DNA from: a virus
Taxonomy: Duplodnaviria; Caudoviricetes
Strand: one strand, 5' to 3'
Virus record (IMG/VR): IMGVR_UViG_3300036846_000887
Location: 1-52,373 of that record
DNA: 52,373 nt
The stretch's first letter is position 1; the number at the start of each line of letters is the position of its first letter. Under the pieces are notes generated by a model. That model had not been told where the DNA came from, searched no databases, and saw nothing but the letters and a program-made list of their open reading frames with translations. The translations under genes and the position numbers were made by a program. Positions 196 to 51,435 of the stretch are shown one piece after another.

Positions 196-370
196 CCGCT
201 ACCTCATCTACCAGATGAACCCGGCCGATCACATCATGGCGGCCGAAGCCTACGCTGCGGCCGCCGATCGCTCCGAGGCGGAGGACGGCTGGCGGCAGTG
301 GAACGCCACCCTGGCTCTCGCGCACGCCCAGATCGCGCTGGCCCAGATGACCGGCAGCCAGCGCGCCTAG
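185..370 (+). CDS. hypothetical protein
   Basis: ATG 185 (MASDRYLIYQ...); its TAG lies inside palindrome copy 1. Confidence 0.65.
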   Translation: MASDRYLIYQMNPADHIMAAEAYAAAADRSEAEDGWRQWNATLALAHAQIALAQMTGSQRA

Positions 371-379
371 TCCACTAAG
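366..379. repeat. 14-bp palindrome CYTAGTNNACTARG, copy 1
   Basis: CCTAGTCCACTAAG; contains stop of 185..370. Confidence 0.95.
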
Positions 380-412
380 CACCACCAACCCTCAACGAAC
401 GGAGCACGAGCA

Positions 413-757
413 ATGCGAACCATCGAACTCACCGAGGCGGCGCACGCCGACTTCCACCACGACTCCCGGCTGCCGGCACCGTCGCGGCTGTGCGTGATCT
501 GCACGCCGGACCAGGCGCTGGACGACTGGACCGAGGCGGTCGCGTTCCTGCGTACCGCGGTCAACTCCGGCAGCGACGTCGCCGTCGTGATCGGCCGCTG
601 GTGGGTGGCCGCGCTGTGGACCGAGGACAAGCTGGCCCCGCATGTCACCGACGACCGGCTGCCGTGCGCCTGGTGCGGGCAGACCGTGGCCGACTCCGAC
701 GAGACGGCCCGGCACACCGACGACTGCGCGTGGCTGAACTGGCTGACCGCGCCCTAG
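413..757 (+). CDS. hypothetical protein with CxxC motifs
   Basis: AACGGAGC upstream; CVIC and CAWC...H-x3-C. Confidence 0.75.
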   Translation: MRTIELTEAAHADFHHDSRLPAPSRLCVICTPDQALDDWTEAVAFLRTAVNSGSDVAVVIGRWWVAALWTEDKLAPHVTDDRLPCAWCGQTVADSDETARHTDDCAWLNWLTAP

Positions 758-760
758 TCC

Positions 761-800
761 TGTGAACCGACTTGACAAACAGGGACAAAAGGTGTATAAT
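761..800 (+). promoter_or_regulatory. consensus sigma70/SigA promoter
   Basis: TTGACA 772-777, 17-bp spacer, TATAAT 795-800; TGTGAAC at 761. Confidence 0.9.
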
Positions 801-838
801 GGAAGGGTAGGGCAAGCCATGCCCTGCCACCACAGCGG

Positions 839-852
839 CTTAGTCCACTAAG
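839..852. repeat. 14-bp palindrome copy 2
   Basis: CTTAGTCCACTAAG between promoter and RBS. Confidence 0.95.
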
Positions 853-869
853 CCAGAAACGGAGCAACC

Positions 870-1127
870 ATGACCTACCTCAACGTCGGCGCCAGCCACG
901 CCGCGGACGGCCGGATCCGCACCAAGAAGGAACTGAAGGCACTGCTGGCGGCCGACCCGGCCACGGTCGTCTTCGACCGCACCAGCCCAGAGACGCCGGG
1001 GCCGAACGTCACCGGCGACGCGATCCCGCTCGGCGTCAAGCTGTCGGTGGTCGGGCCCGACCCTTTCACCTCACGCAGGTGGTACGCCACCGTGGCGCGG
1101 CACGGGGACCGCATCACGGTCCAGTGA
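870..1127 (+). CDS. hypothetical protein
   Basis: First gene after consensus promoter; AACGGAGC RBS. Confidence 0.85.
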   Translation: MTYLNVGASHAADGRIRTKKELKALLAADPATVVFDRTSPETPGPNVTGDAIPLGVKLSVVGPDPFTSRRWYATVARHGDRITVQ

Positions 1128-1135
1128 AGGAAACG

Positions 1136-1208
1136 CCTACCGGCCCGCGCCGGGCGCCGGCGCGCCTCTCCCCCGTTGCGCGCCCGGTGACCCGAGCGGG
1201 CCGGTAGG
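1136..1208 (+). terminator. long GC-rich stem-loop (terminator or structured RNA)
   Basis: CCTACCGGCCCGC pairs with GCGGGCCGGTAGG, with further inner pairing; no U-tract. Confidence 0.5.
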
Positions 1209-1214
1209 CCCCGG

Positions 1215-1228
1215 CTTAGTCCACTAAG
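1215..1228. repeat. 14-bp palindrome copy 3
   Basis: CTTAGTCCACTAAG. Confidence 0.95.
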
Positions 1229-1255
1229 CCCCCATCGAGAGAAGGAGAACGGAGC

Positions 1256-1348
1256 ATGTGCGAACACGAAGACCGACCCTGCCCCGGCACGAGCTGCCGG
1301 TGCGAGTGCATGAACTGCCCCGACGACAGCGAGGAGGAGGACGAGTGA
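1256..1348 (+). CDS. 30-aa Cys-rich acidic micro-protein (not in ORF track)
   Basis: MCEHEDRPCPGTSCRCECMNCPDDSEEEDE; AAGGAG 8 nt upstream; GTGA overlap with next gene. Confidence 0.6.
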   Translation: MCEHEDRPCPGTSCRCECMNCPDDSEEEDE

Positions 1349-1578
1349 GCGCGAAGTACCTGGCCCGGCCGATCGTGGCGGGCCTGCCCGTCAACGGCGA
1401 CGGCGGCCAGATCAAGGCACGCAGCCTCACGGCGCTGCTGGCCGCGGTCGCCAACCAGGGCACCGTGCCGGAGTACCAGCTGTACAAGGTCACCCAGTAC
1501 GGCGAGCTGGTCAGCCTCGGGAAGGGCGCGTCGGTCCGCCGGCGTGGTCAGCATGGCAAGCCCAGTCGTCAACGGTGA
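1345..1578 (+). CDS. hypothetical protein
   Basis: GTG 1345 after GGAGG; C-terminal part of track ORF 1258..1578. Confidence 0.65.
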   Translation: MSAKYLARPIVAGLPVNGDGGQIKARSLTALLAAVANQGTVPEYQLYKVTQYGELVSLGKGASVRRRGQHGKPSRQR

Positions 1579-1753
1579 GGTCATCACCGCGACCGAGATC
1601 GCCGAGCTGGCCGGCGTGAGCATCTCGGCGGTGTCGAACTGGCGCAAGCGGTACCACTCGTTCCCCGAGCCGGTGATGGACCGGCCGGGCGCGACCCTGT
1701 TCGACCGGGCCGCGGTGACCCGATGGCTGCGCTCGACCGGACGCATCCACTAA
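1553..1753 (+). CDS. AlpA/excisionase-like HTH DNA-binding protein
   Basis: ITATEIAELAGVSISAVSNWRKR-x3-FPEP...LFDRAAVTRWL. Confidence 0.85.
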   Translation: MASPVVNGEVITATEIAELAGVSISAVSNWRKRYHSFPEPVMDRPGATLFDRAAVTRWLRSTGRIH

Positions 1754-1776
1754 CCACAGTCAATGAACCGAGGCCG

Positions 1777-1790
1777 CTTAGTGAACTAAG
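1777..1790. repeat. 14-bp palindrome copy 4
   Basis: CTTAGTGAACTAAG, extended by CCG/CGG flanks. Confidence 0.95.
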
Positions 1791-1814
1791 CGGAGAAAGC
1801 GAACGGAGCAGTCA

Positions 1815-2141
1815 ATGAACATGCAATGGCTCAACGACGACCCGGTGGTCGGCGACATCCCGCCGGTGCCACCCCCGACCCTCAGTCAAAGCTGGCAGGT
1901 CGGTGACACGCCGGAGGCGATCGCGGTCTGCCGGCCCTGGCTGGTCATCATGGTGCTGGCCGGCACCGTGCTGGCCGCGGTCTCGGTGGTGGTGGTGTGG
2001 CGGGCCGGCAACGATCCGGGCCCGCCGCGGCGGCCGCGGCCGATCGTGACCGAGCAGCCGTTTAGGCCGCACGCCCCGGTGTACCCGGTCGCGCCGACCG
2101 GCACGCCGGACGAGACGCTGTCACCGGCGGCGTCCCGGTGA
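1815..2141 (+). CDS. single-pass membrane protein
   Basis: Hydrophobic WLVIMVLAGTVLAAVSVVVVW; Pro-rich flanks; AACGGAGC RBS. Confidence 0.7.
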   Translation: MNMQWLNDDPVVGDIPPVPPPTLSQSWQVGDTPEAIAVCRPWLVIMVLAGTVLAAVSVVVVWRAGNDPGPPRRPRPIVTEQPFRPHAPVYPVAPTGTPDETLSPAASR

Positions 2142-2578
2142 GCCGGCCTAGTCCACTAAGCGACCGGCCGAGGCACGCCAGCGTCAGCGAGGTCCAGGCG
2201 CTGACCAACCAGTGGTCGCCGGGCATCCTGGAGTGCCGGGCGTACGGGCATCAGTGGCGGCCGAGCCGGGTGATCTACAACAAGGTCGACCGGTTCTACG
2301 CCATCTACCAGAGCTGCCCGCGGTGCGAGTGCGAGCGGTATCAGGAGATGACGGTCGCCGGGCATGTGGTGGCCAGCTACATCCACTACGCGCCGGGCTA
2401 CCTGGCCGAGGGTTCGGGCCGGATCATCGGCGAGGCGAAGGACGCGGTCCGGGTCGCGGCGGTCACCCGGGTGTGGACGGTGGAGCAGCCGTCCGCGGCG
2501 GTCGCCCGGGCCGACCATCCGCCGCGGTCGCTGGCGATGCGTCGCGAACTTGGCCTCGTCACTGAAGGGAGCGAATGA
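2138..2578 (+). CDS. hypothetical Zn-binding protein
   Basis: CRAYGH and CPRCEC motifs; 4-bp overlaps at both ends. Confidence 0.8.
   Translation: MSRPSPLSDRPRHASVSEVQALTNQWSPGILECRAYGHQWRPSRVIYNKVDRFYAIYQSCPRCECERYQEMTVAGHVVASYIHYAPGYLAEGSGRIIGEAKDAVRVAAVTRVWTVEQPSAAVARADHPPRSLAMRRELGLVTEGSE
2147..2160. repeat. 14-bp palindrome copy 5
   Basis: CCTAGTCCACTAAG read in its stop-free frame (PSPLS) near a gene start. Confidence 0.95.
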
Positions 2579-3267
2579 TGGCACGCGAGGTTGTCCTCGT
2601 CGAATGGTGCGACGTCTGCCTGGCCGACGCCTCGCACACCGAGGCGCACTGGACGTCGGTGATCCGGATCGGCGACGTCGAGCGCGAGCTGATGCTGTGC
2701 GAGCCGCACTTCGAGCAGCTCATCGGCGAGCTGCCGCTGGTGCTGGAGAAGGTGGGCACCAGAGTCGAGGTGCCGGCGCCGCACACCCGCAAGCGGCGCG
2801 AGCCGGGTGAGCCGAAGCAGAAAAAGAACTCGGCGCGGGACTGCCCGATCTGCGGCACCACCCGGTCGTCCGGGCCGACGATCGCGGTGCACATCTTCCG
2901 CGACCACCTGGGCGGCTCACGCCCGGTCGCGCCGACGAACTGCCCGGACTGCGACTGGGTGCCGAAACCGGACGCGAAGAACCGGATGTCGGCGATCGGC
3001 AAGCACCGGCAGGTCATGCACGGCTTCGACCCGATCGCGGAGGCGATGGCCGCCTACGACGCGGCGCAGCACCCGTACGACGTGCCGGTCACCCGCAAGC
3101 CGGAGCTGCTCAGCCAGGTGGAGGCGGCGGAGCGGGCCGGGGTGAACAAGGACGTGATCCACGGCTGCGTGCGGCGCGGCACGCTGGCCTCGACGCACAC
3201 CGAGGACGGCCACGTCCGGATCAGCTCGGCCGACCTGGAGAAGTGGATGGCGAGCCGCGTCACCTAG
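2575..3267 (+). CDS. multidomain DNA-binding protein: Lsr2-like N-terminus, two C2H2-like fingers, excisionase-type HTH
   Basis: CPICG...HIFRDH, CPDCD...HRQVMH; C-terminal LLSQVEAAERAGVNKDVIHGCVRRGTL...RISSADLEKWM. Confidence 0.75.
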   Translation: MMAREVVLVEWCDVCLADASHTEAHWTSVIRIGDVERELMLCEPHFEQLIGELPLVLEKVGTRVEVPAPHTRKRREPGEPKQKKNSARDCPICGTTRSSGPTIAVHIFRDHLGGSRPVAPTNCPDCDWVPKPDAKNRMSAIGKHRQVMHGFDPIAEAMAAYDAAQHPYDVPVTRKPELLSQVEAAERAGVNKDVIHGCVRRGTLASTHTEDGHVRISSADLEKWMASRVT

Positions 3268-3276
3268 TGGACTAAG
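3263..3276. repeat. 14-bp palindrome copy 6
   Basis: CCTAGTGGACTAAG; contains stop of 2575..3267. Confidence 0.95.
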
Positions 3277-3278
3277 CG

Positions 3279-3319
3279 TGTGAACTACCTTGCCAATCTA
3301 TGTAGTTGTGTTGTATAGT
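3279..3319 (+). promoter_or_regulatory. SigA-type promoter
   Basis: TGTGAAC-N3-C then TTGCCA 3290-3295, 18 bp, TATAGT 3314-3319; AT-rich. Confidence 0.7.
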
Positions 3320-3363
3320 GTGTCCATGTTGTACCAATTCGTCCCCACCAGAACGGAGCACAG

Positions 3364-3621
3364 ATGAACGACAACGTCATCCTCTTCCCCGGCAAGCCGG
3401 CACCGGAGCAGATCGAGGCCGCGAAAGCCCACCACCCGGCCAGCACGACGCAGCCGGCCGGCGGCGAGCTGGACATCGCGTTCGTGCAGAACTCCTGTCT
3501 CGTCCTGATGCCGGTGCTGGACGAGCTGCTGGTCGCCTGCCAGCTGCTGGACCGGGAGCGGGCCAACGAGATCATCGGCGCGGTCCGGCGCCAGGTGCTC
3601 AGTTGGCCCGACACGGTGTGA
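3364..3621 (+). CDS. hypothetical protein
   Basis: AACGGAGC RBS; typical codon usage. Confidence 0.8.
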   Translation: MNDNVILFPGKPAPEQIEAAKAHHPASTTQPAGGELDIAFVQNSCLVLMPVLDELLVACQLLDRERANEIIGAVRRQVLSWPDTV

Positions 3622-3794
3622 CCTACAAGGTCCACTTCGGGCGCACGGATGAGCCCGCCTGCGGCAACCACGACATCCACCTGGCCAGCACCGACCCGTT
3701 CCAGGTCACCTGCCGGGCCTGCCTGAAGTCACACCACTACAAGGACGCGCTCGCGTCCAAGCTCGACACGCCGCAGCGGAAGGGGAGCCGATGA
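3618..3794 (+). CDS. small Zn-binding protein
   Basis: GTGA overlap; H...CG...VTCRAC. Confidence 0.7.
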   Translation: MTYKVHFGRTDEPACGNHDIHLASTDPFQVTCRACLKSHHYKDALASKLDTPQRKGSR

Positions 3795-3797
3795 CGG

Positions 3798-3811
3798 CCT
3801 AGTCCACTAAG
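3798..3811. repeat. 14-bp palindrome copy 7
   Basis: CCTAGTCCACTAAG. Confidence 0.95.
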
Positions 3812-3854
3812 CACCACAACCAGCACCACCAACCCAAGGAAAGGCAACGGAGCA

Positions 3855-4145
3855 ATGGCACAGAACACGAGGCTGTGGAACATGATCCACAGCGGACTGG
3901 AGCAGAACATCTCACCGGAGATGCTGTACGCCGCGATCGTCCGGCACGAGGACGAGGCGTTGGACTACATCCGGCTGAAGGCCGCGGAGCACGGGCTGTT
4001 CCCGGCGATCGTCGGCAAGGTGCTGATGGAGACCGGGCTCGGCTCCTGGCTGAGCCCGGAGGAGATGACGCAGCTGGCCACCCAGGAGGCGCAGCAGCAG
4101 GCCACCCTGGCCGAGATGATGCGCCAGCTCGGCGGTGAACTGTGA
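3855..4145 (+). CDS. hypothetical protein
   Basis: AAGGAAAGG plus AACGGAGC upstream; coupled to next gene. Confidence 0.8.
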   Translation: MAQNTRLWNMIHSGLEQNISPEMLYAAIVRHEDEALDYIRLKAAEHGLFPAIVGKVLMETGLGSWLSPEEMTQLATQEAQQQATLAEMMRQLGGEL

Positions 4146-4795
4146 CCGCCGTGGAGGAGACCCGCGCCGTCGTTGCGCTGGGCCAGGTGTGGCAGGCGAA
4201 TCATTCGCCGTCGACCACCATCGTCCTCATCGACGTCCCCGACGGCGACGAGGTGTCCTACCTGTACTGCGAGACGGACGACGGCACCGTGAACCGGGTC
4301 GGCACCTGCCGGCCGGACGTGTTCACCAACACCGACGGCGGCTACCGGCTGCTGCCCGTGTCCGAGCAGGACACCTGGATGCGGACCGCGGTCACCGCCG
4401 GGGACCTGCTCCGGGAGGAGCGGCAGCAACGGAAGGAGATCCAAGCCCGGCTGACCACGACCGGGGAGCGGCTGGCGGAGGCGCAGCGGCAGCATGAGCG
4501 GCGGCTCGAAGCGATCACCGAGGTGCTGCACCGGGAGGCGAACTCGCGCCAGTATTGCGGCGAGTTCGACGAGGTGATGGAGGAGATGGGGCTGCGGCCG
4601 CGGGAGCGCGACTTCGACGTCACGGTGTACGTACGGCTGGAGCGGACGATCACGGTGTCGGCGACCAGTGAGGACGCCGCCTACGAGCAGGCGGGGGGCG
4701 TGGCGTCGGCGCAGATCGGCGGCCGCGCCAACCGGGTCCAGGTCGGCAACCTCGACGGCTGGTACCTGCAGGAGGTGACCACCAGCGAGGACTGA
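4142..4795 (+). CDS. hypothetical protein with central coiled coil
   Basis: GTGA overlap; E/Q/R-rich helical segment. Confidence 0.8.
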   Translation: MTAVEETRAVVALGQVWQANHSPSTTIVLIDVPDGDEVSYLYCETDDGTVNRVGTCRPDVFTNTDGGYRLLPVSEQDTWMRTAVTAGDLLREERQQRKEIQARLTTTGERLAEAQRQHERRLEAITEVLHREANSRQYCGEFDEVMEEMGLRPRERDFDVTVYVRLERTITVSATSEDAAYEQAGGVASAQIGGRANRVQVGNLDGWYLQEVTTSED

Positions 4796-4816
4796 GCAGC
4801 CAGTCCGATAAGACGT

Positions 4817-4852
4817 GGGTGACCGGCGGGATGGGGATGCCGCCGGTCACCC
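4817..4852 (+). terminator. 13-bp perfect hairpin abutting a palindrome
   Basis: GGGTGACCGGCGG / CCGCCGGTCACCC, 10-nt loop. Confidence 0.55.
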
Positions 4853-4853
4853 G

Positions 4854-4867
4854 CCTAGTGAACTAAG
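4854..4867. repeat. 14-bp palindrome copy 8
   Basis: CCTAGTGAACTAAG. Confidence 0.95.
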
Positions 4868-4887
4868 CGACAAGGAGAGAGACACAG

Positions 4888-5043
4888 ATGGATGACGGCG
4901 CGTTCGTGACGATCTTGGCAGTCGTGTGCATCGGGCTGGGCTGGGCGTTGCTGTACGCCCACGCCAACTACGTGCACCGGGAAAGGATGGAACGGTTGGA
5001 GGAGAAGCAGTGGCGCGCGTTCTGGGGTGAGGAGGTCGACTGA
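4888..5043 (+). CDS. small membrane protein, 51 aa (not in ORF track)
   Basis: MDDGAFVTILAVVCIGLGWALLYAH...; AAGGAG upstream. Confidence 0.7.
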   Translation: MDDGAFVTILAVVCIGLGWALLYAHANYVHRERMERLEEKQWRAFWGEEVD

Positions 5044-5044
5044 G

Positions 5045-5323
5045 ATGCCCTACAACGAGGACGGGACGTATCGCGAGCCCGACAACACCGACCGGGCCGG
5101 CTGGGCGCGGGAGGCGGTGCAGACCTTCGCCGACAGCACTCGGTCCACACCGGGTGACCGGGACCTGACCGACGAGGAGAACCTGCACGAGGTGGCCGGT
5201 GACCTGCTCGGCGACCTGCTGCACCTGCTCGGGGAGGAGGCGTTCGCGAACTGCCTGGAGCGTGCCCGCGGCTACTACGCCGACGAGCTGGCCGACGAGG
5301 AGGAGGTTGCCGACCTACACTAA
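5045..5323 (+). CDS. acidic hypothetical protein
   Basis: ATG 5045 after GAGGAGG; DLLGDLLHL helical motif. Confidence 0.8.
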   Translation: MPYNEDGTYREPDNTDRAGWAREAVQTFADSTRSTPGDRDLTDEENLHEVAGDLLGDLLHLLGEEAFANCLERARGYYADELADEEEVADLH

Positions 5324-5336
5324 ACTATGGTATGAT
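5307..5336 (+). promoter_or_regulatory. SigA-type promoter with extended -10
   Basis: TTGCCG 5307-5312, 18 bp, TGG-TATGAT 5331-5336. Confidence 0.65.
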
Positions 5337-5366
5337 ACAGGACATTCCACCCAACACTACACACGG

Positions 5367-5380
5367 CTTAGTTGACTAAG
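5367..5380. repeat. 14-bp palindrome copy 9
   Basis: CTTAGTTGACTAAG between promoter and RBS. Confidence 0.95.
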
Positions 5381-5402
5381 CCACACCGAACGGAGCAGCA
5401 CC

Positions 5403-5741: not shown

Positions 5742-5748
5742 GACCCAC

Positions 5749-5797
5749 ACAGGCACGGCACCGGACCCACCCCGGTGTCGTGCCTGTCCGTGTTTTC
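5749..5797 (+). terminator. intrinsic terminator
   Basis: ACAGGCACGGCACCGG / CCGGTGTCGTGCCTGT stem followed by CCGTGTTTT. Confidence 0.7.
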
Positions 5798-5819
5798 AAC
5801 CTCACCCCGGAGGGCAGTA

Positions 5820-6615: not shown

Positions 6616-6616
6616 G
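6603..6616. repeat. 14-bp palindrome copy 10
   Basis: CTTAGTCAACTAAG; contains the ssb stop. Confidence 0.95.
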
Positions 6617-6665
6617 CAACCACACCCAGATAAGCGAGACATCTCAACCGGAGGAACAGCCCCAC

Positions 6666-42587: not shown

Positions 42588-42588
42588 G

Positions 42589-45821: not shown

Positions 45822-47644
45822 CCGGTGTGCTCCATCACCTGCAGGTACTGGTGCAGCATCGCCCGGTCGTGGCGGGTCTGGGAGGACAGCAGCATCGTGC
45901 AGTAGGAGTCGAGCACCGCGGTCAGCCGGGCCGGCTCGGCCAGCCCGTCGCACAGTTCGGGCACCGTGGTCCAGGCGTCCTCCAGGCACCAGGCGGTGGA
46001 CCCGTTGGGCCGCACGTAGAGGTAGTAGTCCCGCGCGCTGACCCCGTCCACCTTGGTCGGCTGCCGGTTGCGCAAGCGGTTCCCGGCCCGTTCCAGGGCC
46101 CGCATCACCAGCGCCTCGGACACCCGTTCCAGCGCGGCGGGCAGCTGCCGGCTGGGTGCCTGCTCCGGTGCGGAGCGGGGCAGCGGGTGCCCGCGCAGCG
46201 ACGGGGTGGGCCGCTGCTCGCGCGGCGTGCCGGCGCTGGCGTCGGCCGGGTTGAGCTTCACCCCCAGGTCGCGCAGCGCGTCGAGCACCATGTCCGGGGT
46301 GGAGGACTGGATCGCGACCTTCATCAGCAGCCACTGGGCCAGCTGGTCGTGAAGCGGCATGTCGGCCAGCTCGAAGCCGGACTCGCGCACCGTGGCGACG
46401 TCGGAGATCAGGCCCCGGTCGTAGAGTTCCAGCGCCTGCTTGGACAGGTCCGGGCGCATCCGCAGCGAGGACGTGTCATAGATCAGGGTGTCGGTGGGGT
46501 CGCCGGTTACCGGCCGGACGTAGCCGACGATGAGGGCGTTGCACACCAGCTCGCACAGCGGCTCGATGTGCAGCTTGATCGCGGACTCGTCCACCATCCA
46601 GGCCGACCAGTGGTTCATCGCGCCGCCGGTGCCGGAGGAGGCGCCGATGCCGAGCACGATCTCCGGCGGCATGTCCATCCCGAGGGCGAGCCGGCGGATC
46701 GCCTCGTCGCGCAGGTTGGTGGAGTTCTGGTCCAGCTCGGACCAGAAGGTGATCGGTTTCTGGAACTCCTTGATCGCATCGACCGGGCCGGACACCACCA
46801 GCGGCACCACCGCGGTGGGCGACTCCGGGTTGCGGATCGGCTCCATCATCCCTTCGCCGAGCACCCGCATGAACGACTCGGCCCGGTTGGCCGGGTCCGG
46901 CAGCGGGCCCTCGCCGTCGGCCGGCGGCGGCGGCGGCGGGAACTCCAGGGTGTCGGGGATCGGCAGGATGCCAGCACCGGCTACCCGGCTGGTGATCTGG
47001 GCGAAGATGTGCCGGGTCAGCCACTCGATCTCGGTGAGGATCGGCAGCAGCGCCTTGCTCGGCGCGTCCGCTTCCAGCCGGCTGCGCGGGTGCGGGCGCC
47101 AGACCCGGATCACGATGTCGGTGGGTTGCAGGGTGATCTGGGCGACGCCGTGGCCGTACACGATGGTCCAGGTGGTGCCGACCACCCGCATCTCCTCGGT
47201 GGACACGATCTCCCAGATCATCGGGGCGACCTCGCCGAGGTCGTCGACGTTCTCGCGCTGGTTGCGGCGCCCGACGATGTAGCACTCGCCGGCGACGGTG
47301 AGGTGGATGCCGAGCGCCTCCAGCATCTGGGCCTGGCCGTCCCGGCCGGCGAACAGGATGTCGAGCAGGTGGGCGGCCTGCCCGGTGGGGTTGACGGTGA
47401 CCTTGTGGCTGGTCGGGTCGATGGTGGCCGGTTGCAGCACCACCCGGCTCATCGCGTTGCCGACCCAGTTGGCGGCGAAGCGGAACTCGGGGCAGATGTC
47501 GTAGTGCCGCCAGGCTTCGCGCTGCCAGCCGGTCTGCGGCCGGGCGTACAGCCGCGGCATCTGGCCGGGGAACTGGACGGCGGAGGCGACCAGCGCGGTG
47601 GTCGGGATCACCACGTCGCGCGGATCTGTTTTCCGCCGAGGCAC
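45818..47644 (-). CDS. portal protein
   Basis: WQREAW..YD...E.RFAANW, VWRPHP, RLALGMDMPPE, NHWSAW; follows terminase. Confidence 0.92.
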   Translation of the reverse strand: MPRRKTDPRDVVIPTTALVASAVQFPGQMPRLYARPQTGWQREAWRHYDICPEFRFAANWVGNAMSRVVLQPATIDPTSHKVTVNPTGQAAHLLDILFAGRDGQAQMLEALGIHLTVAGECYIVGRRNQRENVDDLGEVAPMIWEIVSTEEMRVVGTTWTIVYGHGVAQITLQPTDIVIRVWRPHPRSRLEADAPSKALLPILTEIEWLTRHIFAQITSRVAGAGILPIPDTLEFPPPPPPADGEGPLPDPANRAESFMRVLGEGMMEPIRNPESPTAVVPLVVSGPVDAIKEFQKPITFWSELDQNSTNLRDEAIRRLALGMDMPPEIVLGIGASSGTGGAMNHWSAWMVDESAIKLHIEPLCELVCNALIVGYVRPVTGDPTDTLIYDTSSLRMRPDLSKQALELYDRGLISDVATVRESGFELADMPLHDQLAQWLLMKVAIQSSTPDMVLDALRDLGVKLNPADASAGTPREQRPTPSLRGHPLPRSAPEQAPSRQLPAALERVSEALVMRALERAGNRLRNRQPTKVDGVSARDYYLYVRPNGSTAWCLEDAWTTVPELCDGLAEPARLTAVLDSYCTMLLSSQTRHDRAMLHQYLQVMEHTG

Positions 47645-47645
47645 C

Positions 47646-47969
47646 TCAGTCGTCTCCGTCTCGGGCCACTACGATCGCCGCCAGGTAGGACACCGCGAGC
47701 CAGCCGTTGACCGCCCACCACCAGAAGTTCCAGCTGGTCCAGTGGCCCCAGGCCAGCACCCCGGCGGCGAGGTAAGGCGCCGCGCAGTACCCGCAATCCA
47801 CAAGCTTCGACCACTCGCCGTCCTTTGTCACCACCCGCCACCGGTTGCGTAGCCAGGCGACCGGCGGGTAGCCGTCGAAGACGATGAGCCGGGTGAGCCG
47901 TGCGGTGGACAGGATCGAGGTGACCGCGACCGCGATCCAGTGCAGCGCCCAGCCGTAGCTGCCGGTCAG
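47646..47969 (-). CDS. DUF1360-like membrane protein, apparent CTG start
   Basis: ARLTRLIVFD..PP..WLR...L..C.YC; the frame extends 45 codons upstream of the track's GTG to a GGAGG. Confidence 0.75.
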   Translation of the reverse strand: MTGSYGWALHWIAVAVTSILSTARLTRLIVFDGYPPVAWLRNRWRVVTKDGEWSKLVDCGYCAAPYLAAGVLAWGHWTSWNFWWWAVNGWLAVSYLAAIVVARDGDD

Positions 47970-47981
47970 GATCCCTCCCCG

Positions 47982-47995
47982 CTTAGTGGACTAAG
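47982..47995. repeat. 14-bp palindrome copy 24
   Basis: CTTAGTGGACTAAG. Confidence 0.95.
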
Positions 47996-48001
47996 TGGGT
48001 G

Positions 48002-49420
48002 CTACCCCACGGCGTGCAGGTGCCGGTTGGTGGGTGAGGACAGGTGCGCGAGCACGGTGGCGGCGGAGGCGATGGAGGCGGGCGCGCCGTAGCGGTTCAG
48101 CTCGGTGGCGGCGTGCACCAGCGCGTCGACCCGGTTCGGGCTGGCGCCCTTGCCGGGCACCCAGGTGCACATCTCGTCCTCCAGGGCCTCCATCGCGCCG
48201 GGCTTGCCGACCAGGAACACCCGGCCCTGCTCGAACAGCGCGACGATCGGCTCGGCCCGGATCTCCTTGCCGCGCCGGGAGGTGACGTCCTTGACCCGGA
48301 CGCCGTCGTGGCCGGAGTTGGCCAGGGTGTGCCGGACCATGTCGCCGCCGTAGTTCTTCTCCGCGACGATCGCGTCGGCCAGCAGCGAAGCCGCCAGCCG
48401 GTGGGCAGCCCCGGCCCACTCGGCCGGGGAGTATTTGCCGGAGACGTCGGCGAGGATGTACAGGTTGCGCCCGGCGGTGCCGACCGCGACGATGCCGGTC
48501 TCGTCCGAGCGCTTGTTCTTGGTGCCGGCCGGGTCGACGCCGATCACGATCCGGTCCAGCGGCGGCGGCTCGGGCACCCAGGCCAGCATGTCGTAGCGCC
48601 ACAGCGCGCCGGCGATGTCGGGCAGGATCTCGCCGTACAGTTCCTGCCGGCCTTTGCGGGTGCCCTCGTAGCGGGTCAGGATCTGGGCGGCGAAGGTGTC
48701 GGCGAGGTTGGCCAGGTTGGAGTAGGTGGTGGGGTTGCTGGTGACGGTCAGCGGGTCGGCGACCAGCGCCTTCATCCACTTGGTGGGCAGCGGGGTGGTG
48801 GAGCACACCACCTTCGGCGCCCGGCCGAGCCGCAGCGCCAGCAGCAGGGTGTCCCAGACATCGGTGACCAGGTCGAAGTGGGCCGGCTCGTCGAGCCACG
48901 CGAAGCCGAACTGCGGGCCGCGCAGCCGGTCCGGCTCCTCGGCGGAGAAGCCCTGCGCGATGGCGCCGTTGGGCCAGGTCAGCTTCTTCTTGCTCGGTTC
49001 CCACTGCGGCGCCTGGCCGGGCGGTGCGGTGGCCAGCAGCCCGGACTCGCCCTCGACGACGGTCTCGCGCAGATCCCAGCCGGTGGCGGCGACCAGCGCG
49101 ATCCGGCCGGTCAGGCCGGTGACCCGGTGGGTGATCTCGGAGCAGGTGCGGGTCTTGCCGCCGCCGCGGCCGCCCTTGACGCAGAAGGTGAGCCAGTCGG
49201 CCCACCAGCGCGGTGGCCGCTGCTCGGGCCGGGCGTGGTGCCAGGCCCAGTCGCCGTGCGGGCTGCCGTCGCAGCCGGGCAGAGTGCAGTAGAACGGCCG
49301 CCACGCCTTGCGCTGGGTGTCCTTGAGCAGCTCCAGCGCCCGGGCCTGGTGCTCGGGTTTCCAGTTCCGCCAGGCGTCTAGGGCCTGACCGGGCGGGACC
49401 GGCGGTAGCGGATCAGGCAT
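48002..49420 (-). CDS. terL: terminase large subunit
   Basis: GGRGGGKT Walker A, WLDE Walker B, STTP, IGVDPA and PNRVDA nuclease motifs. Confidence 0.96.
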   Translation of the reverse strand: MPDPLPPVPPGQALDAWRNWKPEHQARALELLKDTQRKAWRPFYCTLPGCDGSPHGDWAWHHARPEQRPPRWWADWLTFCVKGGRGGGKTRTCSEITHRVTGLTGRIALVAATGWDLRETVVEGESGLLATAPPGQAPQWEPSKKKLTWPNGAIAQGFSAEEPDRLRGPQFGFAWLDEPAHFDLVTDVWDTLLLALRLGRAPKVVCSTTPLPTKWMKALVADPLTVTSNPTTYSNLANLADTFAAQILTRYEGTRKGRQELYGEILPDIAGALWRYDMLAWVPEPPPLDRIVIGVDPAGTKNKRSDETGIVAVGTAGRNLYILADVSGKYSPAEWAGAAHRLAASLLADAIVAEKNYGGDMVRHTLANSGHDGVRVKDVTSRRGKEIRAEPIVALFEQGRVFLVGKPGAMEALEDEMCTWVPGKGASPNRVDALVHAATELNRYGAPASIASAATVLAHLSSPTNRHLHAVG

Positions 49421-49518
49421 GCCGGGTGCCACAGCCCGCGGTAGCGGCGGACCGCCAGCTGGCCGACCGACAGGGTGCGGCGGCAGTAGGCGCAGCGGCT
49501 GTCATAGCGCACCTTCAC
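49378..49518 (-). CDS. 46-aa Zn-finger protein (not in ORF track)
   Basis: MKVRYDSRCAYCRRTLSVGQ...WHPAC; CxxC...HxxC. Confidence 0.6.
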   Translation of the reverse strand: MKVRYDSRCAYCRRTLSVGQLAVRRYRGLWHPACLIRYRRSRPVRP

Positions 49519-49786
49519 GCTTCGAGTGTAGGTCCGGTTCAGTCACTGTGTCGTCGCCTTTGGTGACGTAGCCGGCGAACCGGCCGGACCGGCCGCCGCG
49601 GTAGCCGGGCTGTTTGGCGACCAGCTCGGCGACGTCGAGGCCGAGCACCTGGGCGACCCGGGTGGCGACCAGGGTCTGCAGCCAGACGCTGACCGACGGG
49701 GCGCCCTCGGCGGCGGCGGCGTCGCGGACCAGCATCGGCAGCTCGGGGCTGGTGTTGAACTCCACCCGCTTACCGCGCCACGGCAT
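49502..49786 (-). CDS. ribbon-helix-helix-like protein
   Basis: RVEFNTS strand followed by two helices (LVRDAAAAEG.PSVSVWLQTLV). Confidence 0.7.
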   Translation of the reverse strand: MPWRGKRVEFNTSPELPMLVRDAAAAEGAPSVSVWLQTLVATRVAQVLGLDVAELVAKQPGYRGGRSGRFAGYVTKGDDTVTEPDLHSKREGAL

Positions 49787-50306
49787 CGTCGATGACCTCG
49801 GCGTCGAAGATGTCGGCCTCGGTGACCTTCGGCAGCGAGCCGGCCGCGACCGCGGCCACCCAGGCGGCCAGCTCCAGCTCCGAGGGCGAGTGCACCACCA
49901 GCTCGGCGGGGGCGGCGTAGCCGTTGAGCTTGACGATGTCGGTGATGATCTCGCGGGCCCGGCCGACCGCGGCCAGCTGCTCCGGGTCGGCCGGGTCGGC
50001 GGCCTTGAACCAGACGGCGTTGAGCAGCCGGTCCAGCCGCCGGGTCATCAGCGCCCGGCCGTGCGCCTTGTCCTGTTCGGTGAGGGTGCCGGCCAGCTGG
50101 CGTTCGACGGCGACCAGGGCGTTGCGCGGCGAGGCGTAGCCGAGGGTGCGCGCGATCGCGTCCCAGCTCTCGCCCTCGGTGCGCAGTTTCAGGGCGGCGT
50201 CGGCCTTGCGGCGGCGGGCGCCGGCGAGGGCCGCGCCGCCGCGCCGGGCCCGGCCGGTGCCGGTGCTGGCCACCCCGGTCGGGTCGGCCGGGTCCTGGTG
50301 CATCAC
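49770..50306 (-). CDS. HTH protein, putative terminase small subunit
   Basis: AL.LR..G.SWDAIARTLGYAS; helical body; upstream of terL. Confidence 0.8.
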   Translation of the reverse strand: MMHQDPADPTGVASTGTGRARRGGAALAGARRRKADAALKLRTEGESWDAIARTLGYASPRNALVAVERQLAGTLTEQDKAHGRALMTRRLDRLLNAVWFKAADPADPEQLAAVGRAREIITDIVKLNGYAAPAELVVHSPSELELAAWVAAVAAGSLPKVTEADIFDAEVIDDAVAR

Positions 50307-50494
50307 GGCGTCCAGTGTGCCCCGCCGTCCGGGCCGGGTGAAGGGGCTGCGCTTAGTGGACTAAGCGGGTCGGGTGGGCCGTCCTCGGGCTCGGGCTCGC
50401 GGTCGGCCTCGGCCTGGGCGGCGACGAAGGCGGCGGCGAGGGCGGCGACGGCTGCTGCCCAGCCGGGGCTGGGGCGACCGGCTCTGCTACTCAT
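50303..50494 (-). CDS. hypothetical protein
   Basis: GAGG RBS, GTGA overlap; reads through palindrome 25 in the stop-free frame. Confidence 0.4.
   Translation of the reverse strand: MSSRAGRPSPGWAAAVAALAAAFVAAQAEADREPEPEDGPPDPLSPLSAAPSPGPDGGAHWTP
50352..50365. repeat. 14-bp palindrome copy 25
   Basis: CTTAGTGGACTAAG. Confidence 0.95.
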
Positions 50495-50531
50495 GCGGCG
50501 ACACCTCTTCGCTTCCTCGACTCGGCGGGTG

Positions 50532-50744
50532 TCAGATTTCGTTGTCCGCCCAGCGTTGCCGCATCGCCAGCCGCTGCTCCGCGCTGGCGTCGGGCGGCAG
50601 CTCGGCGATGACGTAGCCGAGTGCTTTCTGCACCCAGGCGTTGCGGGACCGGCCGGTGAGTTTCGCGCGGGCGTCGATTGCGTCGACGAGGGTGGCGGGC
50701 AGCCGCAGCGACAGCTGGGTCGTGCCCTCTGCTGGTGTGGTCAT
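50532..50744 (-). CDS. ribbon-helix-helix (Arc/CopG-like) regulator
   Basis: QLSLRLPATLVDAIDARAKLTGRSRNAWV; TATGAT 6 nt before ATG suggests a leaderless mRNA. Confidence 0.85.
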   Translation of the reverse strand: MTTPAEGTTQLSLRLPATLVDAIDARAKLTGRSRNAWVQKALGYVIAELPPDASAEQRLAMRQRWADNEI

Positions 50745-50745
50745 T

Positions 50746-50856
50746 CCGATATCATAGCGATAGCGCACCGGGTGATATCACTTCCGGGCTCCGGGTGATA
50801 TCACGAGCCGGGTTTGATATCACGATCCGGGCCGGAAACGGCCCCGGTGATATCAC
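50746..50856. repeat. array of GTGATATCAC palindromes
   Basis: Exact at 50772, 50795, 50847; TTGATATCAC 50814; CCGATATCAT 50746. Confidence 0.9.
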
Positions 50857-50860
50857 CCCG

Positions 50861-50874
50861 CCTAGTCGACTAAG
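50861..50874. repeat. 14-bp palindrome copy 26
   Basis: CCTAGTCGACTAAG; contains a stop. Confidence 0.95.
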
Positions 50875-51053
50875 CGGTCCTCCCGGGCGGCCGCCCGGAC
50901 CTCGCGGTGCAGCAGCGAGCGGACGTAGGCGGACCGGGTGACCCGGCCCCGCAGCCTATCCAACGACACAACCTCGGCGGGCGAGAGCCGGACATTGAGC
51001 ACCGTGTCCCGCGCCATCCCGTCCCGCGGCCGACCCACCATGCTGTCATACAT
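50862..51053 (-). CDS. ribbon-helix-helix protein
   Basis: GRPR...VLNVRLSPAE...LDRLRG..TRSAYVRSLL. Confidence 0.8.
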   Translation of the reverse strand: MYDSMVGRPRDGMARDTVLNVRLSPAEVVSLDRLRGRVTRSAYVRSLLHREVRAAAREDRLVD

Positions 51054-51400
51054 TATCAGCAGCGCAGACCCAGCGCGCGAAAACAGGCACCGAGGAGAGG
51101 AGTGCCCGAGCCCGCCGGGTCACCCCACACTGCACTACGGGATGGCTGGAACCCCCCAGAACAACCAGCGCCACGAGCTGCAGCGCCACAGCCCCCACAG
51201 CCCCCACAGGCCCGCACCGCCGGGCCCCGCATCGTGCACTACGGAATGGGTGGGTGGAGCAACCACCCACCGACACGACTAGCGCCTCCGGCGAGGGTGC
51301 GCGAACCTGTGAGTACGGGTAGGGGTCGCTGTGTGCCAGCTCTGTGACCTGGGCCACCCGCCAGCCTGTGAGCCAGCTGTGCGATGCTGTGCATGAGCTA

Positions 51401-51416
51401 TGTGACGCAGCTCACA
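51401..51416. promoter_or_regulatory. CRP/GlxR-type consensus box
   Basis: TGTGA-CGCAGC-TCACA, exact TGTGA-N6-TCACA. Confidence 0.55.
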
Positions 51417-51421
51417 GCCCA

Positions 51422-51435
51422 CTTAGTCCACTAGG
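51422..51435. repeat. 14-bp palindrome copy 27
   Basis: CTTAGTCCACTAGG. Confidence 0.95.

Follow-up and report, generated by a model that had tools for sequence, protein, structure and literature searches.

A short palindromic DNA word repeated between the genes of an uncultured soil phage

Phage genomes in which one short sequence recurs at many dispersed places have been described several times. L5 and phiC31 are reported to carry 18-30 dispersed repressor sites (PMC4557955). The stoperators of L5, whose distribution there and in Cluster A is the one used for comparison here (PMC4351075, PMC4557955), are described as asymmetric and bound by a monomer (PMC4557955). In T4-type phages, PeSL cassettes are reported to mediate gene shuffling (PMC2839356), and gene 14 of Corndog is flanked by a 17-bp direct repeat, whose relation to a 17-bp palindrome is left unstated in the account of it (PMC4351075). 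The 17-bp inverted repeats of Cluster O and the 18-bp inverted repeats of Cluster EG are the same kind of element as that considered here.

The window, i.e., the whole stretch of DNA analysed (52,373 nucleotides), comes from an uncultured soil phage in which one short palindromic word is repeated dozens of times between genes. Exact matches to CYTAGTNNACTARG number 27, each where the initial annotation had put it; in 100 dinucleotide-preserving shuffles the expected number was 0.00 and the maximum 0. When up to three mismatches to CTTAGTCCACTAAG were tolerated, the scan returned the same 27 places alone (as 54 strand hits), hence no degenerate copies in the window, and scoring the arms only added two look-alikes with three mismatches each. 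Half-sites fall almost wholly within full sites (CTTAGT 20/20, ACTAAG 23/24, CCTAGT 7/8 and ACTAGG 4/5). Arm spacings of 0, 1 and 3 to 7 gave 0 hits, leaving N2 as the sole spacing in the window. Exact sites with no degenerate copies and hardly any lone half-sites are the pattern expected from selection for sequence recognition. The AT-rich arms stand out from a genome of 69% G+C.

Placement is equally sharp. With GC3-based gene calls made for this analysis, all 27 sites lie in an intergenic gap, over a stop codon or at a called gene start, which bears out for both arms the gene-boundary placement first proposed. Under the same calls there are 34 gaps of 8 nt or more, and a copy is found in 25 of them. 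An automatic count puts one of the 27 inside a gene, the coding fraction of the window being 92%. In at least 11 cases the motif's own TAG or TAA is the stop codon of the upstream gene. GC-rich hairpins of private sequence, separate from the motif, often stand directly 5' of a copy, and copies lie 10-50 nt 5' of starts, often 2-8 nt 5' of a conserved AACGGAGC box. The copies in the window are as follows.

366 to 379, + strand: motif copy CCTAGTCCACTAAG; TAG is the stop of gene 146-370, next start 413
839 to 852, + strand: motif copy CTTAGTCCACTAAG; 38 nt downstream of the -10 in promoter 772-800, next start 870; a cassette indel has its left edge here
1215 to 1228, + strand: motif copy CTTAGTCCACTAAG; the cassette indel has its right edge here
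1777 to 1790, + strand: motif copy, centre GA; next start 1815
2147 to 2160, + strand: motif copy CCTAGTCCACTAAG; 6 nt inside the called (uncertain) start of gene 2138-2578
3263 to 3276, + strand: motif copy, centre GG; TAG is the stop of HTH_17 gene 2575-3267, -35 of promoter 3290-3319 13 nt downstream
3798 to 3811, + strand: motif copy; next start 3855
4854 to 4867, + strand: motif copy, centre GA; GC-rich hairpin directly 5', next start 4888
5367 to 5380, + strand: motif copy, centre TG; 30 nt downstream of the -10 in promoter 5307-5336, next start 5403
6603 to 6616, + strand: motif copy, centre CA; TAA is the stop of SSB gene 6115-6615
9162 to 9175, + strand: motif copy; 33 nt past the -10 of promoter 9100-9128, next start 9194
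10439 to 10452, + strand: motif copy; GC-rich hairpin directly 5', next start 10471
13006 to 13019, + strand: motif copy CTTAGTGGACTAGG; TAG is the stop of gene 12828-13010
15147 to 15160, + strand: motif copy, centre GG; HNH gene 14824-15159 ends with its TAA, next start 15178
18294 to 18307, + strand: motif copy; 15 nt 5' of Rad52-like gene 18323-19012
20624 to 20637, + strand: motif copy at the early arm end; TAG is the stop of gene 20110-20628
21907 to 21920, - strand: motif copy, coding strand CCTAGTCCACTAAG; covers the stop codon of gene 21916-22209
24476 to 24489, - strand: motif copy, centre CG; stop of gene 24485-27376, start 24464 11 nt on
27387 to 27400, - strand: motif copy; stop of gene 27396-29735, start 27376 10 nt on
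29750 to 29763, - strand: motif copy; 5 nt past the stop of 1110-aa tail gene 29769-33101
33113 to 33126, - strand: motif copy; start 33101 11 nt downstream
37825 to 37838, - strand: motif copy; start 37785 39 nt downstream
42927 to 42940, - strand: motif copy; over the stop of MuF-fusion gene 42936-45821
47982 to 47995, - strand: motif copy; 6 nt past the TerL stop (TerL 48002-49432)
50352 to 50365, - strand: motif copy; TerS-like gene 49770-50306 45 nt downstream
50861 to 50874, - strand: motif copy, centre CG; covers the stop codon of RHH gene 50862-51053
51422 to 51435, + strand: motif copy in the divergent control region; first early gene 107 nt downstream

The geometry between motif and promoter is variable: a -10 element precedes three copies by 30-38 nt, and a fourth copy has a -35 element 13 nt downstream. 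The promoters are these.

772 to 800, + strand: sigma-70-like promoter, TTGACA-17-TATAAT, 12/12
3290 to 3319, + strand: sigma-70-like promoter, 10/12
5307 to 5336, + strand: sigma-70-like promoter, 9/12, with TG
9100 to 9128, + strand: sigma-70-like promoter, 12/12, with TG

The window had been taken for a whole genome, an assumption that has to be corrected. Contig L005, 99% identical, bridges its end to its start via 3147 further bases, and these carry 10 more motif copies, including two CCTAGT..ACTAGG double variants, for a total of about 37 copies in about 55.5 kb.

The central dinucleotide is oriented with transcription. The counts in the initial annotation, coding-strand CC at 9 of 16 copies on the left arm and 8 of 10 on the right, were reproduced, and the copy at 51422 also has CC if it is assigned to the + strand gene downstream of it. 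CC makes up 18 of the 27 window centres and GG 3 (hand-computed two-sided binomial p ~0.0015); with the L005 copies the figures are 26 and 3 of 37 (binomial p ~1.5e-5). A symmetric dimer alone would leave this orientation unexplained; co-oriented copying by descent could account for it. Arm variation was counted by hand over the same 37 copies (27 from the window and 10 from L005). Positions 2 and 13 read T/A in 17, C/A in 12, T/G in 6 and C/G in 2, with about 3 C/G expected if the two were independent. Symmetry is kept, there is no pairing covariation, and pairing is unselected. If the word were a hairpin, the 12 C/A copies, a third of the whole, would have a C.A mismatch.

Relatives have palindromes of their own at comparable locations. 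The comparison covered ten whole or near-whole genomes (G001-G010) whose TerL is 52-63% identical to that of the window phage (G000). Seven have a genome-wide palindrome in 10-39 copies, two (G008 and G009) have a weaker one and G010 has none; shuffles (n=10) gave at most 8 copies in those seven genomes and at most 9 over all 11. The seven are listed here.

G001: TTAAC-N4-GTTAA
G002: TTCAGT-N3-ACTGAA
G003: TTTAC-N3-GTAAA
G004: TGACA-N4-TGTCA
G005: GTCCAGT-N1-ACTGGAC
G006: GTTAC-N5-GTAAC
G007: ACCAGCA-N1-TGCTGGT

Half-sites of several relatives are one or two letters apart (TTCAGT vs TCCAGT, TTACAC vs TGACAC), which looks like stepwise drift of a recognition sequence. The spacing also moves. 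L007, with a TerL 86% identical, has the same arms around N1 in place of N2, and spacings are mixed within G002 (N3 in 21 copies, N4 in 5) and G009 (N3 in 9, N4 in 7); such variation is easier to reconcile with a loop than with a rigid dimer. In some relatives the centre is only 0-1 nt, so full arms cannot all pair as a hairpin. Conservation of position, to which the initial annotation had looked, holds for several sites, with the sequence itself replaced: the motif is at most 5 nt from the stop of the 29769-33101 gene family in G000, G002, G003 and G004, 5' of the Rad52-like gene in G000, G003, G004 and G006, and 3' of SSB in G000, G001, G002 and G004. Palindromes occur as well in three cultured actinophages, AWGoat, BruhMoment and OneinaGillian, the first two having one in common. 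The version in cultured Arthrobacter phages has 9-10 bp of GC-rich stem (-20 kcal/mol), and as RNA it would be certain to fold. With these relatives, the window palindrome joins the kind already described in Clusters O and EG.

The reading preferred here, tentatively and at a little under an even chance, is that the palindromes are putative double-stranded DNA binding sites for a phage-encoded dimeric protein at cistron junctions. Counted in its support are the sharp site set, the AT-rich, weakly folding arms, the lack of covariation, the lineage-specific half-sites, some conserved positions, the analogues of the first early gene and the precedent of L5 and phiC31. Counted against it are the oriented centre, the non-rigid spacing, the strong Arthrobacter-phage stem, weak binder evidence and the variable promoter geometry. 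Two genes are candidates for the binder.

51543 to 52373, + strand: first early gene, cut by the window end; HTH-like segment and C-terminal helical hairpin
50862 to 51053, - strand: RHH-like gene, 63 aa, at the head of the late arm

The first early protein would be the best candidate. In L005 it is full length (297 aa), with its TAG stop inside a motif copy. It diverges fast. Positional analogues, also first early genes, are found in G003, G005, G006, G007, G008, G009, AWGoat, BruhMoment and OneinaGillian, most with a similar HTH-like segment (ambiguous in G006); pairwise E-values among them are only 0.002-0.1, within a set of 7 to 10 sequences. AWGoat and BruhMoment, which share their palindrome, have NT[VL]R.Y in this segment in common, and in G010, which lacks a palindrome, the first early gene is unrelated. 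A Pfam search with the protein gave no match, AF2 models were poor (pLDDT 42 and 54), Foldseek with the model returned nothing at E <= 0.001, and the Atlas leads, to a ParB HTH, were beneath the Atlas's own bar. The RHH-like family, present in 7 of 11 genomes with a variable beta-strand, is the second-ranked candidate. Of the idea that a dimeric phage protein silences the genome through these sites, the protein survives as the best-supported explanation, with the 51543 gene, already among those proposed, as the top candidate; silencing of the L5 type is unsupported.

A different view, which must be judged unlikely, is that the words are mainly recombination linkers, kept uniform by gene conversion with no dedicated binding protein. 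The phage's own Rad52-like annealase and exonuclease would shuffle, delete and import cassettes among word-sharing phages, much as with PeSL-mediated shuffling in T4-type phages. One direct case exists. Gene 870-1127 and its spacer are missing from L005, with both breakpoints no more than about 10 nt from copies 839 and 1215; what remains is a single copy, with the left flank of 839 on one side and, beyond a short changed stretch, that to the right of 1215 on the other. Contigs of two further soil runs, from two other studies, share this joint (854 to 1239), and a patch of L005 at 91% identity (window 135-861) stops at copy 839. A strain-level indel between two copies makes a recombination role real, at least as a by-product: the repeats act as short homologies for the loss or gain of gene cassettes. 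The accessory small-ORF region is the one richest in copies (10 in the 3.1-kb gap, where they flank nearly every gene), and variants cluster there, CCTAGT in 8 of 10, as expected from local copying or block import; co-oriented copying would account for the oriented centre. The Rad52-like and exonuclease genes are the most widely shared early families, in 9/10 and 10/10 palindrome-bearing genomes, and are absent from G010. However, the strain comparison, about 18 kb, has one indel only, and the other edge of the divergent patch (~127-135) is away from any copy. Homologous recombination needs direct repeats and no dyad symmetry, so the palindrome is left unexplained, as are the complete lack of decayed copies and near-lack of lone half-sites. 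For exchange driven by an annealase, 14-16 bp is a short word, and ten late-arm copies lie between conserved structural genes that are not shuffled among relatives. Linkers, raised at the outset as an alternative, gain this one direct case and rank below the protein sites.

Somewhat less likely again is an RNA element, a sense stem-loop 5' of the ribosome site that a phage RNA-binding protein or nuclease would recognise and that would control processing, stability or translation of the next cistron within a polycistronic message. The copies are always sense-oriented, lie within transcripts past three of the promoters and just before starts and AACGGAGC boxes, and have a preferred loop, UCCA, in 26 of 37; the centre length shifts by one within and between close lineages, as a loop might, and the Arthrobacter-phage stem is very stable. 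Against this stand the missing covariation and the C.A mismatches. The stem is weak in the window phage (-5.3 kcal/mol) and, at -2 to -3 kcal/mol in several lineages (-2.1 in G003, -2.9 in G001), too weak alone. Orientation bias is weak or absent in G002, G003, G005 and G007, a purely structural role would not need an identical stem sequence in every copy, and an Rfam search of the window gave 0 hits.

Hairpin-forming promoters are known in phage N4, and a middle or late signal of promoter type, to which a phage factor redirects host RNA polymerase and from which transcription starts a few bases downstream, would suit the promoter-like location of the copies (after the previous unit's hairpin, before the ribosome site, in sense orientation). 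The coding strand of the late arm, about 30 kb, has no sigma-70-like promoter, so another signal must drive it. That the palindrome is this signal is nonetheless improbable: neither the window word nor the relatives' palindromes resemble -10 or -35 elements, a promoter does not need dyad symmetry, a scan of 60 proteins against Pfam or PHROGs turned up neither an RNA polymerase nor a sigma factor, three copies are directly downstream of strong promoters, and some are just 10-11 nt from a start codon.

Immunity-repressor operators silencing a whole prophage, as first suggested from the L5 stoperators, match in layout (short gaps of both arms hold dozens of sites, which follow the direction of transcription) and are very improbable, since the sites are symmetric whereas stoperators are described as asymmetric and monomer-bound (PMC4557955), the same 60 proteins include no integrase (as the initial annotation had noted), immunity repressor or partition gene, none of these families is evident by eye among the ORFs of the 3.1-kb gap, and the closest cultured relatives with such repeats are described or annotated without repressor, integrase or lysogeny genes.

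If the palindromes are binding sites of a dimeric phage protein, each subunit would read one half-site (CYTAGT), and the sites would mark junctions between blocks of translationally coupled genes, each past the stop of the preceding gene, in many cases past a GC-rich hairpin of private sequence too, with the next ribosome site 10-50 nt further on. The bound protein may modulate transcription across these junctions, as a roadblock or insulator against early sigma-70-type read-through, and might thereby time or partition the expression of both arms in the lytic cycle. Loss and gain of cassettes at the repeats would be a by-product of this function. Protein and sites would co-evolve, so that each lineage would come to have its own palindrome.

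All 27 copies of the palindrome CYTAGT-NN-ACTARG listed in the initial annotation are exact matches, against 0 in 100 shuffles, and no additional place is found in the window when up to 3 mismatches are allowed. Hexamer half-sites are nearly absent outside the full sites, and arm spacings other than N2 do not occur in the window. Aligned on the coding strand, the copies show a weak extension to cG-CTTAGTCCACTAAG-Cg, with G at -1 in 23/27 and C at +1 in 23/27.

The surrounding DNA has a G+C content of 0.67-0.73 along the whole window (0.69 overall). Its 52,373 bases are the entire IMG/VR virus record, for which a completeness of 87% is given by CheckV. Genes, called with our own GC3-based rule, occupy the + strand over the first ~20.6 kb and read along the - strand between ~51.4 and 20.7 kb.

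Genes of the window
6115-6615, + arm: SSB
7629/7836-9098, + strand: DnaB-type helicase, preceded by an HTH_36 protein
18323-19012, + arm: Rad52-like annealase
19009-19941, + arm: exonuclease
+ arm: VRR-NUC and HNH nucleases
Virion genes, - arm: TerL and the TerS-like gene (below), portal, MuF fusion and long tail genes
48002-49432, - arm: TerL
49770-50306, - arm: TerS-like gene
51543 onward, + strand: first early gene, ATG at 51543, with the box AACGGAGC 7 nt before the ATG

The MuF-like minor capsid protein (42936-46334, - strand) carries, as fusion partners, a 2'-5' RNA ligase-superfamily domain and a long unassigned C-terminal part. TerL is 46-48% identical to that of Arthrobacter phages and 41% identical to that of Cluster EG Microbacterium phages (OneinaGillian 41%). 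At the DNA level no close relative is found among GenBank phages; megablast of 1-20000 returned only a 128-nt patch in five mycobacteriophages. The window sequence is present in three soil-metagenome runs, none of which is listed as an RNA run. Integrase, repressor and partition families were not found among the 60 proteins scanned with Pfam and PHROGs.

A 99%-identical contig (L005) covers window 38005-52373, then 3147 bases missing from the window, then window position 1 again. Because it joins both ends, the record is less than the full genome, and the early arm begins near 51.44 kb, crosses the gap and resumes at position 1. The gap (L005 3913-7059) holds 10 more copies of the palindrome together with small ORFs, including one lipoprotein-like ORF (signal ...LAGC) and membrane proteins. 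Nearly every small ORF there is flanked by a copy, which brings the total to ~37 in ~55.5 kb.

Placement of the copies follows the gene junctions closely. By our gene calls a copy is present in 25 of the 34 gaps of 8 nt or more, and the junctions without one are mostly those of overlapping, translationally coupled genes. All but one of the 27 lie outside genes, and the virion arm holds 10 of them. At least 11 upstream genes take their stop codon from the TAG or TAA of the word itself, and the next start codon follows 10-50 nt away in most cases. The bias of the central dinucleotide with transcription is confirmed, coding-strand CC being found in 18/27 copies and GG in 3/27; with the gap copies included, CC is found in 26/37. 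Only the two near-identical contigs have the exact 16-mer in several copies, and the same word is present in L005 and in L006 (99-100% identical contigs).

Repeats of this type have been described before. Cluster EG Microbacterium phages (Hyperion, Squash, OneinaGillian) carry 18-bp inverted repeats with the consensus GATCAACCNNGGTTGATC (PMC7302621). As that paper describes them, these also consist of two inverted arms around 2 bp, in at least 8-11 copies, in short intergenic gaps 14-22 bp before starts, and the genomes are likewise those of lytic actinophages with converging arms. They differ from the present sites in the word itself, in their smaller number and in being confined to the early end, whereas 10/27 copies occur in the virion arm here (PMC7302621). 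The published form GATCAACC-NN-GGTTGATC was re-found in OneinaGillian (11 copies). In Cluster O mycobacteriophages the repeat is a 17-bp palindrome, TGTTCGGNNNCCGAACA, with 34 copies in Corndog (PMC4351075). Invariant arms, a variable centre, more than 30 copies, a higher density in the non-structural part and an apparently non-temperate life style are common to that system, as described there, and to ours. In Cluster O, though, about a third of the copies lie inside genes and no orientation with transcription was seen, while here 26/27 are outside genes and the centre is oriented (PMC4351075). The passages of the two papers that deal with the Cluster O and Cluster EG repeats give their function as unknown (PMC4351075, PMC7302621), and a literature search on such repeats in Arthrobacter phages and in actinophages generally found no functional study.

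The features tested that define this kind are all found in the window. One short dyad word (arms of 6-8 bp, centre of 2-3 bp) occurs many times per genome, 27 times here and 37 with the gap, in short gaps a few tens of bases before starts. The genome has no recognisable lysogeny genes among the 60 scanned proteins and is that of an actinobacteriophage as judged by a G+C of 0.69 and by TerL identity. The word is conserved within the cluster in L005 and L006, and a third contig, L007, keeps the arms with a centre of 1. By every defining feature tested, the palindromes belong with the repeats of Cluster EG and Cluster O actinophages, and the feature itself is therefore not new.

More can be said about how the trait is distributed. 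Among 80 TerL-related IMG/VR loci, the window's word is found only in two near-identical contigs; other repeated palindromes are found at other loci. Ten whole or near-whole relatives (G001-G010) with TerL 52-63% identical were compared, and in 7/10 a palindrome family stands far above the shuffle maximum (at most 9).

Palindrome families in the ten relatives
G001: TTAAC-N4-GTTAA, 10 copies
G002: TTCAGT-N3-ACTGAA, 21 copies, and 5 with N4
G003: TTTAC-N3-GTAAA, 23 copies
G004: GGGTGACA-N4-TGTCACCC, 39 copies
G005: GTCCAGT-N1-ACTGGAC, 17 copies
G006: GTTAC-N5-GTAAC, 18 copies
G007: ACCAGCA-N1-TGCTGGT, 21 copies
G008: weaker family, 7 copies
G009: weaker family, 9 + 7 copies
G010: no palindrome family

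In L007, whose TerL is 86% identical, the window's arms surround a one-base centre (TTGCTTAGT-C-ACTAAGCAA; 3 copies in 4.8 kb). A search of IMG/VR and metagenomes for further contigs of this type gave, besides L007, only single, chance-like matches among the matches listed. In each of the cultured Arthrobacter phages AWGoat and BruhMoment, GGGG-GGTCGG-N4-CCGACC-CCCC occurs ~30 times, and almost every copy lies in the early arm, after a stop and ahead of the following ribosome-binding site; a literature search on Arthrobacter phages found no description of this palindrome. Copies in the relatives favour intergenic positions without being confined to them: 12/39 in G004 and 9/26 in G002 fall inside rough gene calls, compared with 84-94% coding sequence. 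Conservation of the sites among relatives, on which the initial annotation would have them judged, is seen in several positions and not in sequence. Some positions are shared across genomes, while the words differ.

Positions shared between the window and relatives
Directly past the stop of the 29769-33101 gene family: window, G002, G003, G004
Before the Rad52-like gene: window, G003, G004, G006
After SSB: window, G001, G002, G004
After DnaB: window, G001, G003

The 12-mer GAAGTCTGCCTA is common to G001 (52-63) and G002 (285-296), near the left contig ends and just ahead of the first palindrome; it might belong to an early control region or to a genome end.

Other elements are found close to the copies. 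Four sigma-70-like promoters were detected, all in the early arm and two with perfect consensus, and none lies inside a motif copy; on the late-arm coding strand no sigma-70-like promoter was found. Three copies start 30-38 nt past a -10 element, and thus inside the 5' leader, and one ends 13 nt ahead of a -35 element. Immediately upstream of many copies (e.g., 4854, 10439, 15147) are GC-rich hairpins of private sequence, so structural hairpins do exist beside the word and are distinct from it. Such hairpins, at 4815-4853, 10394-10438, 15120-15146, 807-835 and 9135-9160, also stand just past two promoters; they may be terminators or RNA-end protectors. The sole strong intrinsic-terminator-like site of the early arm (5749-5787, + strand; a 16-bp stem followed by a T-run) falls in one of the few gaps that have no motif copy.

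The box AACGGAGC occurs 15 times against 1.5 expected, with 14 copies on the + strand (398-18317 and 51529-51536) and one on the - strand (33726-33733). In the early arm it sits between the word and the start codon, 4-10 nt from the start, and 12 of the 14 + copies follow a palindrome. By analogy with Cluster K mycobacteriophages and Cluster EF Microbacterium phages, it is best described as a start-associated, over-conserved ribosome site that is SAS-like. The SAS/ESAS of those phages, as they are described in PMC7302621, similarly have a ribosome-site box of unusual conservation that a repeat closely precedes. The sequences are unrelated, however, and the upstream element of the window is sharper than the box and is also found without it (PMC7302621). 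Related GGAGCAACC-ATG junctions also occur in G003, in G002 and at the locus L031.

Is the palindrome a DNA site read by a symmetric protein, or does it act on one strand, as RNA or single-stranded DNA? Several properties argue for the DNA site. Positions 2 and 13 vary independently among the 37 copies (T/A 17, C/A 12, T/G 6, C/G 2), so that a folded strand would contain a C.A mismatch in a third of the copies. The arms are AT-rich within a GC-rich genome and would form only weak stems (-5.3 kcal/mol in the window, -2.1 in G003, -2.9 in G001). Some relatives' palindromes have a spacer of zero or one base. A single sequence is common to all copies, which structure alone would not demand. Other properties point to a strand-specific role. 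The centre is oriented in the window, in G001 (5/5 asymmetric sites in the same direction) and in G004; orientation is not clear in G002, G003, G005 and G007. The length of the centre differs by one base within G002, within G009, and between the window and L007, and the Arthrobacter-phage palindrome would form a very stable GC-rich stem (-20 kcal/mol). Taken together, the evidence is mixed. A predicted DNA site is ranked first, since it accounts for symmetry, sharpness and lineage-specific drift alike, and descent of the sites by co-oriented copying could explain the orientation of the centre.

The copies were also proposed to be recombination linkers for gene-cassette shuffling, and one event fits this. 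L005 is without window 862-1211, which includes the gene 870-1127; at its joint a single copy of the word remains, bordered on the left by the flank of copy 839 and on the right, beyond a short altered stretch, by that of copy 1215. Both ends of the indel are at or within ~10 nt of these two copies, and the same joint (854 to 1239) is present in contigs of two other soil runs. The repeats have therefore been real breakpoints at least once. An adjoining patch of 91% identity has one end at copy 839 and its other end away from any copy. That the word has dyad symmetry, that decayed copies are absent and that copies stand between stable structural genes argue against recombination as the full explanation. 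A similar case may be Corndog gene 14 in Cluster O, which is flanked by a 17-bp direct repeat that the description of this gene does not state to be the Cluster O palindrome (PMC4351075).

The known system first suggested as an analogue was the stoperators of mycobacteriophage L5 and Cluster A. As far as stoperators have been described, they too are numerous, scattered through the short gaps between genes in both arms and aligned with transcription, and the orientation of the window's centre (CC 18/27, GG 3) agrees with this. Stoperators, though, are asymmetric 13-mers bound by the monomeric immunity repressor of a temperate phage (PMC4351075, PMC4557955), while the window's sites have perfect inverted arms, only the centre being asymmetric, and lysogeny genes were not found. 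With symmetric arms, and with no immunity repressor family in the 60 scanned proteins or in the gap ORFs inspected by eye, silencing of the L5 type is not supported. The PeSL of T4-type phages are likewise repeated junction elements in accessory regions, where genes are lost, gained and swapped (PMC2839356), and one indel in our comparison does end at repeats. A PeSL as described there is a sigma-70-like promoter combined with a terminator stem-loop (PMC2839356), whereas the 14-mer is neither, and its stem has no T-run. Rfam 15 gave no match at gathering score over the whole window. The system is not one of L5-type stoperators, of PeSL or of a known RNA family. The geometry of serine-recombinase crossover sites, an asymmetric 2-bp core between inverted arms, fits the window, but the scans gave no recombinase family and the centres of close and distant relatives vary in length (1, 3, 4 or 5). 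REP elements with a RAYT transposase are dismissed because no Y1 transposase family appeared in the Pfam and PHROGs scans of the 60 proteins.

If the palindromes are DNA sites, a symmetric protein should read them. In the KorB/OB system of plasmid RK2 and in ParB/parS, a short palindrome repeated around the replicon is read by a dimeric helix-turn-helix protein, and that palindrome has a TTAG...CTAA-like core, as does the window's word. Phage phiC31 has 17-bp 'CIR' operators. No ParB_N domain is present in the window or in L005. A ParB_N-only protein of ~180-220 aa is encoded before TerS in 9/10 relatives (e.g., G001 54585-55124 and G005 47204-47863) and is also seen at the loci L094-L099, and in 4/5 of the sequences inspected the usual arginine of the GxxRxxA box is missing. 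This protein is rejected as the binder: neither the window nor L005 encodes it, and G010, which has no palindrome family, does.

The strongest candidate is the product of the first early gene, and this is a lead rather than a finding. The protein is 297 aa long in L005, where its stop falls inside a motif copy. Its gene has a GC3 of 0.73 compared with ~0.9 elsewhere and in its neighbours, and only 2 homologues besides itself occur among 1.84 billion representatives; the gene is either recently acquired or very fast-evolving. The protein has a helix-turn-helix-like segment, TQGEYADAVGLSKGSIGIYI (modelled helices 90-96 and 101-116), and a C-terminal helical hairpin. First early genes of similar size are found in G003, G005, G006, G007, G008, G009, AWGoat (gp104), BruhMoment (gp114) and OneinaGillian (gp103). 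Most encode a comparable segment that is followed, as in the window, by a C-terminal helix; for G006 no such segment is apparent. Similarity among these proteins is marginal (E 0.002-0.1, in sets of 7-10 sequences). The AWGoat and BruhMoment proteins match each other at E 1e-15 to 1e-14, and this pair has both the palindrome and an NT[VL]R.Y signature in common. Protein-language (Atlas) and structure look-ups lean weakly toward a ParB-type helix-turn-helix, below their thresholds. Foldseek gave the KorB DNA-binding domain (1r71) at E 7.9 only and nothing at E <= 0.001, in VIA-align the protein matched a generic helical hairpin only (Z <= 6.7), and a PDB profile search returned 0 matches. The AF2 models have pLDDT of 42 and 54.

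Another candidate is the ribbon-helix-helix (RHH) protein at 50862-51053 (63 aa), whose family stands at the head of the late arm in 7/11 genomes and has a variable beta-strand. The HTH_36 protein at 7204-7839, before DnaB, is read as a replication initiator and is a minor candidate for the binder, as are the HTH protein at 1544-1753 and the HTH_17 protein at 2575-3267, neither of which has homologues in the relatives. A second RHH protein, at 50532-50744, occurs only in the window and in G003, the only two genomes with a GTGATATCAC cluster just upstream. It is rejected as the binder and, because it co-occurs only with that cluster, is assigned to this separate small operator system. In the window the cluster (50765-50858) consists of three exact GTGATATCAC at 50772, 50795 and 50847 and one TGATATCAC at 50815, directly upstream of the gene, and in G003, the only one of the 10 relatives with both family and cluster, it is at 37051-37092. 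It is likely the autoregulatory operator of this RHH protein.

The window is an especially sharp case of repeats that, in the descriptions of Cluster O and Cluster EG, are mentioned only in passing. The comparison adds that the trait is common across a clade of soil actinophages, that one word gives way to another from lineage to lineage while some positions are kept, that one strain-level cassette indel lies between two copies, and that there is a concrete candidate protein. With this candidate and with cultured, tractable carriers (AWGoat, BruhMoment and OneinaGillian), the function of the repeats is directly testable. A broader proposal, which we consider unlikely, is that a clade of lytic soil actinophages, including the cultured Arthrobacter and Microbacterium phages, carries a hyper-variable first-early helix-turn-helix protein and a private junction palindrome that co-evolve rapidly enough to differ even between phages whose terminases are 86% identical. 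In that case the palindrome would serve as a transcription-insulation code and as a compatibility tag for cassette exchange, and, if this were true, as a self/non-self barcode for mosaic evolution. Repeats that regulate or insulate transcription would give phages with few promoters a compact control logic; repeats that guide recombination would bear on how phage mosaics are built.
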